Shown piece by piece: positions 1-289 of a DNA stretch of 64,000 bases. The DNA comes from a virus. Lineage: Duplodnaviria; Caudoviricetes. Made by a program: the position numbers and the translations under genes. Numbering within the stretch: position 1 is the first letter of the stretch; each line of letters begins with the position of its first letter. The stretch is taken from the IMG/VR virus record IMGVR_UViG_3300028840_001835; one strand, given 5' to 3'. A model generated the notes under the pieces. The model was not told the origin of the DNA. It searched no databases and saw only the letters and a program-made list of their open reading frames with translations.

Positions 1-289
1 TTGATATCCTCTACCACCTGTGTCTAAGGAAACCCTTCAGATGGTGTATCCTCCTTTATAACACCACTCCCCGGGCGGAGATAACTCCGGGGTAGGCGCC
101 TATGCCCTCAAGCGTAGGTAGGGACTTGTGCCAGCCCGGTGAGAGCAGCGAACTGCATCACGAACTGAAGTCCTGTATGATCTACGGTGTTGCCGTCTAT
201 CGTGTCTCTGGTTTTTTAAGAGGCCACCAGCACCTCTGCATGCTATGTATAGTTCTGCACCCCTGTCGAAGCCAGTTGTAAGCATCCCC
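1..289 (-). ncRNA. ssrA: tmRNA (3' end beyond window edge)
   Basis: 5' GGGGATG...TGGCTTCGACAGGG, then GCATGC-AGAGG-TGCTGG-TGG-CCTCT-TAAAAA-ACCAG, matching tmRNA 5' end and pseudoknot 1. Resume context ATAGAC-GGC; tag frame 194..108. Confidence 0.88.

Follow-up and report, generated by a model that had tools for sequence, protein, structure and literature searches.

A complete, functional-looking, phage-encoded one-piece tmRNA whose 28-codon tag ends in Thr-Tyr-Ala

Phage-borne tmRNAs are known, yet they are almost unstudied functionally, and they touch the question of whether phages want ribosome release alone or also control over the fate of truncated proteins. The question is raised by a locus at the edge of a viral genome fragment from the Caudoviricetes (IMG/VR record IMGVR_UViG_3300028840_001835), of which a stretch of 64,000 nucleotides, here called the window, was analyzed. 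The initial annotation of its first 289 bases recognized, on the minus strand, the 5' end of a tmRNA, a first pseudoknot (PK1), and the resume context ATAGAC-GGC, all of which we found in place; it further proposed that the 28-residue tag had been extended by 11 residues past an internal FAA degron, and that the RNA may free stalled ribosomes late in infection without sending the rescued proteins to ClpXP.

The window holds part of the gene. A match to the tmRNA family RF00023 (49.7 bits, window 276..1 on the minus strand; the gathering score of the family is 47) is truncated on either side by the window edge, and ARAGORN made no tmRNA call on the window, the gene running off its edge. The rest was supplied by a locus, L001, on a 202,521-bp ENA metagenome contig, which was found via the protein encoded at window 293-1405 (minus strand); the reverse complement of this contig matches window 1-7405 with 100% identity and 0 mismatches. 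With the downstream sequence included, the entire tmRNA occupies 412 nt, L001 7117-7528, and spans the whole family model (positions 1-374 of 374) with a score of 139.6 bits (E = 1.7e-56). The tRNA-like 3' end, on which the identification hinged, lies just past the window edge: the T-arm reads CGCGGGUUCGACUCCCGC and carries GGGUUCGACUCCC, the acceptor 3' strand CAUCUCC is present, and ACCA is encoded in the gene. The 7-bp acceptor stem contains a G3:U70 pair, the alanine identity element. The pseudoknot regions PK2 to PK4 align across the entire RF00023 model, with low Rfam posterior probabilities in the region between the tag and PK2. Coordinates of these features, and of those used for comparison below, are collected in Table 1.

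The identical sequence is present in two independent studies, a sediment metagenome (2018) and a study of seawater and marine sediment (2021); the phage is therefore real and has been seen twice, without variation to analyze. Two DNA runs and no RNA run are among the listed sequencing runs that hold the sequence, which is not evidence on expression. Taken together, the locus encodes a complete, functional-looking one-piece tmRNA of the phage itself, so far as this can be read from the nucleotide sequence.

Three observations bear on the annotation of such genes. In the Rfam alignment, five extra bases (cuuac), an unusual insertion, separate the acceptor stem from the CUGGCUUCGAC element, the D-loop analogue. 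ARAGORN calls the tmRNA at L001 6977-7528, with a 5' end 140 nt too far upstream, within the adjoining PurA-like gene, and it is probably the cuuac insertion that misleads the program. An ATG-started ORF of 63 codons (window 100-291, minus strand) lies wholly within the tmRNA in a frame other than that of the tag; it is spurious, but automatic annotation could mistake it for a protein-coding gene.

Table 1. Positions and properties of the tmRNA gene, its neighbors, and the phage tmRNAs and tags compared with it
Feature	Position	Strand	Basis or remark
One-piece tmRNA, first 289 nt of 412	window 289..1	minus	RF00023; tmRNA G1 = window 289
Remaining 123 nt of tmRNA (rest of pseudoknot region, helix 2 3' strand, T-arm, acceptor 3' strand, CCA)	L001 7406-7528		past window base 1
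Acceptor stem 5' strand, GGGGAUG	window 283..289	minus	pairs with CAUCUCC at L001 7518-7524; sequence and Rfam alignment
PK1 (GAGG/CCUC and CUGGU/ACCAG)	window 208..236	minus	Rfam alignment and direct sequence reading
Frame-setting context UAGAC	window 195..199	minus	directly 5' of resume codon GGC; frame scan and sequence
Tag ORF, 28 sense codons (GGC ... GCU)	window 194-111	minus	ARAGORN, Rfam alignment, frame scan
Tag stop UGA, single	window 110-108	minus	
Small hairpin, CCUA-C-GCU / loop UGAG / GGC-A-UAGG	window 99..118	minus	minimum-free-energy and centroid fold; immediately 5' of PK2
PK2 (CCCCGG/CCGGGG with CUCC/GGAG) and most of PK3 (CCAUCUG/CAGGUGG with UUCCUU/AAGGAA)	window 1..98	minus	full-length Rfam alignment and sequence reading
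T4-type late-promoter motif TATAAATA	window 294..301	minus	overlaps stop codon of PurA-like gene; 4 nt before tmRNA G1
Short PurA-like adenylosuccinate synthetase	window 293-1405	minus	directly upstream of tmRNA
L146 tmRNA	L146 1927-2317		116.7-kb IMG/VR contig with related PurA-like gene; RF00023, 81.2 bits; 35% GC
L146 tag			33 codons; starts GN, internal VAA, ends ...VLA
L137 tmRNA	L137 9114-9695		108-kb viral contig with nearest PurA-like relative in IMG/VR; permuted two-piece, RF04321, 60.5 bits
L103 tag			33 aa, ...EVVA; inside a 10-tRNA array
L048 and L053 tags			21 aa, internal AFAA, ...RVAA end; among 11 and 21 tRNAs
L027 tag			27 aa, ...LALA
L028 tag			26 aa
Dandelion (Bxz1-type cluster C mycobacteriophage) tag			25 aa, ...EEAAALV
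Kumao (L126) tag			31 aa
Rey (L125) tag			12 aa, ...VGA
Bacillus phage G tag			...QVA
Xanthomonas phage BUDD tag			...RYA

The reading frame of the tag is well defined. ARAGORN, the Rfam alignment, and a frame scan agree on the peptide GNTVDHTGLQFVMQFAALTGLAQVPTYA, 28 residues with a Thr-Tyr-Ala end, which makes an added tail of 29 residues when the tmRNA-borne alanine is counted; the consensus resume codon of RF00023 falls on the same GGC as that of ARAGORN. The frame at window 194..108 and its resume codon, as first annotated, are thus confirmed, and the tag is indeed long and without an Ala-Ala end. An alternative resume frame giving a normal, short, AA-ended tag would have changed this picture, and it was looked for by scanning every start position: of the alternative frames, one closes after 3 residues and the other encodes an Arg-rich peptide of 30 residues, all starts in the GGC frame end ...PTYA, and a short AA-ended tag occurs in none of the frames. 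In the small hairpin at window 118-99, which we take to be in the position of helix 5, the usual site of the tmRNA stop codon, the UGA stop accounts for bases one to three of the tetraloop. Given this location of its stop, the 28-codon frame looks designed and not like a read-through accident. Four bases upstream of the resume codon, and after PK1, stands the conserved A, in accord with the rule described for E. coli, where the counterpart of UAGAC is U85-A86-G87-U88-C89 (UAGUC) and the nearly invariant A86 sets the frame (PMC2481249). AUAGAC likewise precedes the resume codon in two ordinary Xanthomonadales tmRNAs.

The RNA shares with the E. coli-type one-piece tmRNA (RF00023) the stem with G3:U70, the T-arm and CCA, a PK1 before the tag, the U-A-G context at equal spacing, a hairpin stop codon ahead of PK2, and a full-model alignment of the pseudoknot region. 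It differs in its tag, which has 28 codons and ends T-Y-A, whereas the E. coli tag ANDENYALAA has about 10 codons and ends L-A-A. Unlike the E. coli molecule, it has a single UGA and five extra bases before the D-loop analogue, is phage-borne, and adjoins a T4-type late-promoter motif.

The gene sits within a tRNA island, flanked by the operon of the PurA-like gene and by three tRNA genes; the latter, called by ARAGORN on L001 within 10-250 nt downstream, are Glu-UUC, Gln-CUG, and Gln-UUG. The RNA is embedded among 20 or more tRNA genes; in the window ARAGORN reports 22, at 3010-8903 and all on the minus strand. Rfam adds one at window 4114-4194 (minus strand; 81 nt, 51.1 bits) that ARAGORN does not report and that may contain an insertion. 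The PurA-like protein is labeled PurZ-like in PHROGs (phrog_1211, 8e-60), but the Asp (D11) of its P-loop, G-D-x-G-K-G, is invariant across 19 homologues, and since this residue is kept, it is doubtful that the protein is a PurZ and, by extension, that the genome contains 2-aminoadenine. Identity to its closest homologues, among them proteins annotated in Candidatus Electrothrix and Desulfobulbus assemblies (about 50%), does not exceed 56%; no tmRNA or tRNA was found near the closest homologues on three contigs (L218-L220).

The late-promoter motif that the initial annotation placed 4 nt upstream of the tmRNA is there (window 301-294, minus strand). The window contains 11 copies of it (4.75 expected; shuffle maximum, 9), of which 10 lie on the minus strand. 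In T4 late promoters the motif lies at about -13 to -6. With this spacing a late transcript would start on G2, or on G1 if the spacing may vary by one base, and would thus begin approximately at the mature 5' end; at strict T4 spacing the start is G2, however, and the RNA would be one base short. A strong sigma70-type promoter (TTGACA, 16-nt spacer, TATATT; 11 of 12 positions matching) heads an operon of three genes, the last of which stops 4 nt short of the tmRNA, and no terminator-like site was found separating the operon from the tmRNA. Read-through from this operon, early in infection and followed by RNase P cleavage, would be as possible as a late start, and therefore the timing is not established: the proposal of late expression keeps the motif in its favor, but the sigma70-type operon runs into the gene without a terminator, and expression confined to the late phase does not follow. 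A 16-mer that carries the motif, TTTGATTTATAAATAA, is found at window 294-309 and again at 9465-9480, both on the minus strand, and the second copy precedes an ORF-free stretch (approximately 9122-9480); the 16-mer may be a promoter cassette shared by RNA genes.

Relatives of the RNA were sought in several collections. In GenBank phages, megablast and blastn with the first 3000 and the first 300 bases of the window gave no match, and blastn of the 412-nt RNA against 50,697 GenBank phage records returned nothing beyond the roughly 40 nt of the universal 3' end, with coverage of at most 12%. No match was obtained in IMG/VR with an exact 35-mer and a 5'-end pattern; a back-translated QFVMQFAA pattern gave one match there, in a giant-virus MAG without a tmRNA. 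In the JGI metagenomes, a two-anchor pattern and a back-translated pattern of the C-terminal part of the tag each gave 0 matches. A three-anchor pattern run over 185,579 species genomes recovered only two ordinary, unrelated tmRNAs from Xanthomonadales, with the tag ANDDVYALAA, and no donor or host. Among 80 IMG/VR loci with related PurA-like genes there were four tmRNAs, none related to the present RNA.

We turn from kinship to likeness of the tags. Phage tmRNAs have been listed (PMC4131195) and tmRNAs have been reported in huge phages (PMC7162821); our survey, made with ARAGORN, took in 117 IMG/VR loci sharing the tRNA-like 3' end, the 80 loci with related PurA-like genes, and named phages. 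The IMG/VR tags have a median length of 13 residues. At least 20 residues were found in 12 of the 69 unique tags, a few of which look like mis-calls, and 11 of the 69 have a single-Ala end. Tags of at least 20 residues belong to 2 of 8 tmRNAs inside tRNA arrays and to 11 of 64 outside them, which is no clear difference in a sample that is too small. The two loci with an internal AFAA (L048 and L053) differ by a single base and so hold no information on selection at the level of the peptide. Kumao and Rey, both mycobacteriophages of the Vilmaviridae, have tags of 31 and 12 residues, a contrast which indicates that tag length is labile within phage lineages. On the 108-kb contig with the permuted tmRNA (L137), that gene has a tRNA with an odd anticodon call on one side and a tRNA-Ser on the other.

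The present RNA resembles the long-tagged or non-AA-ended tmRNAs of Dandelion, Kumao, BUDD, and phage G in being phage-encoded and in having a tag longer than, or ending otherwise than, typical bacterial ones, and tRNA genes adjoin the tmRNA in Dandelion, phage G, and Rey as they do here. It differs from them in host and in tag sequence, with no relatedness beyond the universal 3' end. Two further one-piece tmRNAs, L146 and L103, come from viral contigs of 117-119 kb and have long tags with a single final Ala, but they are 43% and 50% identical to the present RNA in nucleotides, and the tags align unconvincingly. Relatedness to the known lineages of phage tmRNAs (Bxz1-type, Kumao/Rey, Streptomyces phages, phage G) was likewise not found outside the universal tRNA-like 3' end. 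With global identities of only 40-50%, the long-tag phage tmRNAs surveyed are, judged by their sequences, parallel cases and not kin. The part of the initial annotation that called the tag long and ending in something other than AA stands; the tag is not singular, however, as named phages and other viral contigs have similar ones.

How should this tag be understood? The initial annotation saw in it a canonical-looking FAA buried under 11 added residues. One explanation along these lines is that a tag of about 17 residues ending ...QFAA was lengthened by 11, perhaps through duplication of a TGL...[F/Y]A unit, with the effect that ClpX would be blind to it and the products spared or redirected. 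A terminal Ala-Ala is critical for ssrA degrons of the ClpXP type in E. coli (PMC10862746), and an internal FAA thus could not act as one; here the only tag-like frame ends Thr-Tyr-Ala, and the [hydrophobic]-Ala-Ala C-terminus of the ClpXP type is not found. Aligned with each other, the halves TGLQFVMQFA and TGLAQVPTYA are identical at 5 of 10 residues, a level that 528 of 20,000 shuffles reach (2.6%, p approximately 0.03), but this repeat was spotted post hoc, and at the nucleotide level the same halves agree at 14 of 33 positions (42%, counted by eye over 33-nt segments). The tag of the permuted L137 tmRNA, from the phage with the nearest PurA-like gene, begins G-x-T-[IV] and has 15 residues with an MAA end; that RNA is a permuted two-piece tmRNA (RF04321) and not an orthologue, however, and is unusable as an ancestral state. 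Shuffles that keep the composition of the tag contain an internal Ala-Ala in 37% of cases and a hydrophobic-Ala-Ala in 15%, and in eight long phage tags the two were observed 5 and 3 times, against 5.7 and 3.0 expected, which is no enrichment. Nor does the sequence preserve any sign that translation once ended there: GCU GCU is followed by CUC, a codon that no single substitution turns into a stop and that is three changes from UAA, and the actual stop lies in the hairpin loop right before PK2. No shorter-tagged relative was found in GenBank phages, IMG/VR, the JGI metagenomes, or the 185,579 species genomes. With Ala-Ala at chance level, the claim that FAA is buried finds no support; we regard such a lengthening as quite unlikely and keep a duplication origin of the tag only as a low-probability hint.

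The reading we favor as most likely, by analogy with other systems, is ribosome rescue combined with a degron of a non-ClpX kind, for proteases of the Lon or FtsH type. Host AlaRS would charge the RNA, and host SmpB and EF-Tu would bring it to ribosomes stalled on broken mRNAs during infection; the ribosomes would be freed, and alanine plus 28 residues would be added to the nascent chain. Transcription could come from TATAAATA, 4 nt upstream, and/or from read-through of the sigma70-type operon, and the long tag would be the native design of the lineage, not a recent accidental read-through. Its last 20 residues are hydrophobic and aromatic; the tail, LQFVMQFAALTGLAQVPTYA, has a single final Ala, and the mean Kyte-Doolittle hydropathy of the last 12 residues is +0.75. 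Such a tail would most likely still mark products for destruction, as a long hydrophobic signal for Lon- or FtsH-type proteases, as in Mollicutes, in place of the ...LAA seen by ClpX. The tags of Mollicutes are of similar length (27 aa in M. pneumoniae), with a hydrophobic, aromatic C-terminal part and one Ala after an aromatic residue, a form that the 28 residues, the hydropathy, and the Y-A end of the present tag share as a resemblance only; the tag sequences are unrelated, and Mollicutes are without ClpXP. The M. pneumoniae tag, with its 27 residues, works efficiently as a Lon degron, and a reporter is protected only when C-terminal residues are mutated (PMC8403727). The assignment to Lon or FtsH rests on this analogy and on hydropathy. 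An alternative is that only ribosome release matters, in which case the tag would be unconstrained, would have drifted in length and ending, and its odd end would have no specific function. In E. coli it is ribosome release, and not the function of the tag, that is critical for phage propagation (PMC2481249), and phage tags vary widely even within one family, as in the Vilmaviridae above, with endings that include LV, VVA, VLA, RYA, QVA, and VGA. Yet 7 of the 8 long phage tags keep hydrophobic, Ala-rich tails (last-12 hydropathy above +0.5), which suggests that the end is under some selection and still serves as a degradation signal, and the present frame stays open for 28 codons where one alternative frame closes after 3; we consider drift unlikely. 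Long tags with such tails are exemplified by Dandelion, Kumao, L146, L103, L048, and L053. The RNA might also be a decoy that does not rescue and instead soaks up host SmpB or AlaRS, shutting down host trans-translation. There is a precedent in mycobacteriophage DS6A, whose RNA has little beyond the tRNA-like domain; tmRNA is inhibited by a comparable molecule, for which SmpB titration is one possible cause (PMC4131195). The present RNA, however, has the parts of a complete tmRNA, namely the frame-setting context, the open tag frame, and the hairpin-loop stop before PK2, all of them needless for a decoy, and we hold this explanation to be extremely improbable.

The notion that large phages may, through tmRNAs of their own, use long private tags, by which chains would be kept from host ClpXP/SspB or directed to another protease or fate, is very doubtful in our view; here the tag might have gained its second TGL...[F/Y]A module after an ...FAA end that was there before. 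As long or non-AA tags are already known in named phages, the present tmRNA adds one case to an existing pattern and opens no new question by itself. It does provide a well-defined example, with all parts present, from a marine T4-like phage that has many tRNAs, and since its tag is clearly without an Ala-Ala end, it would be a good test object for experiments on tag fate.
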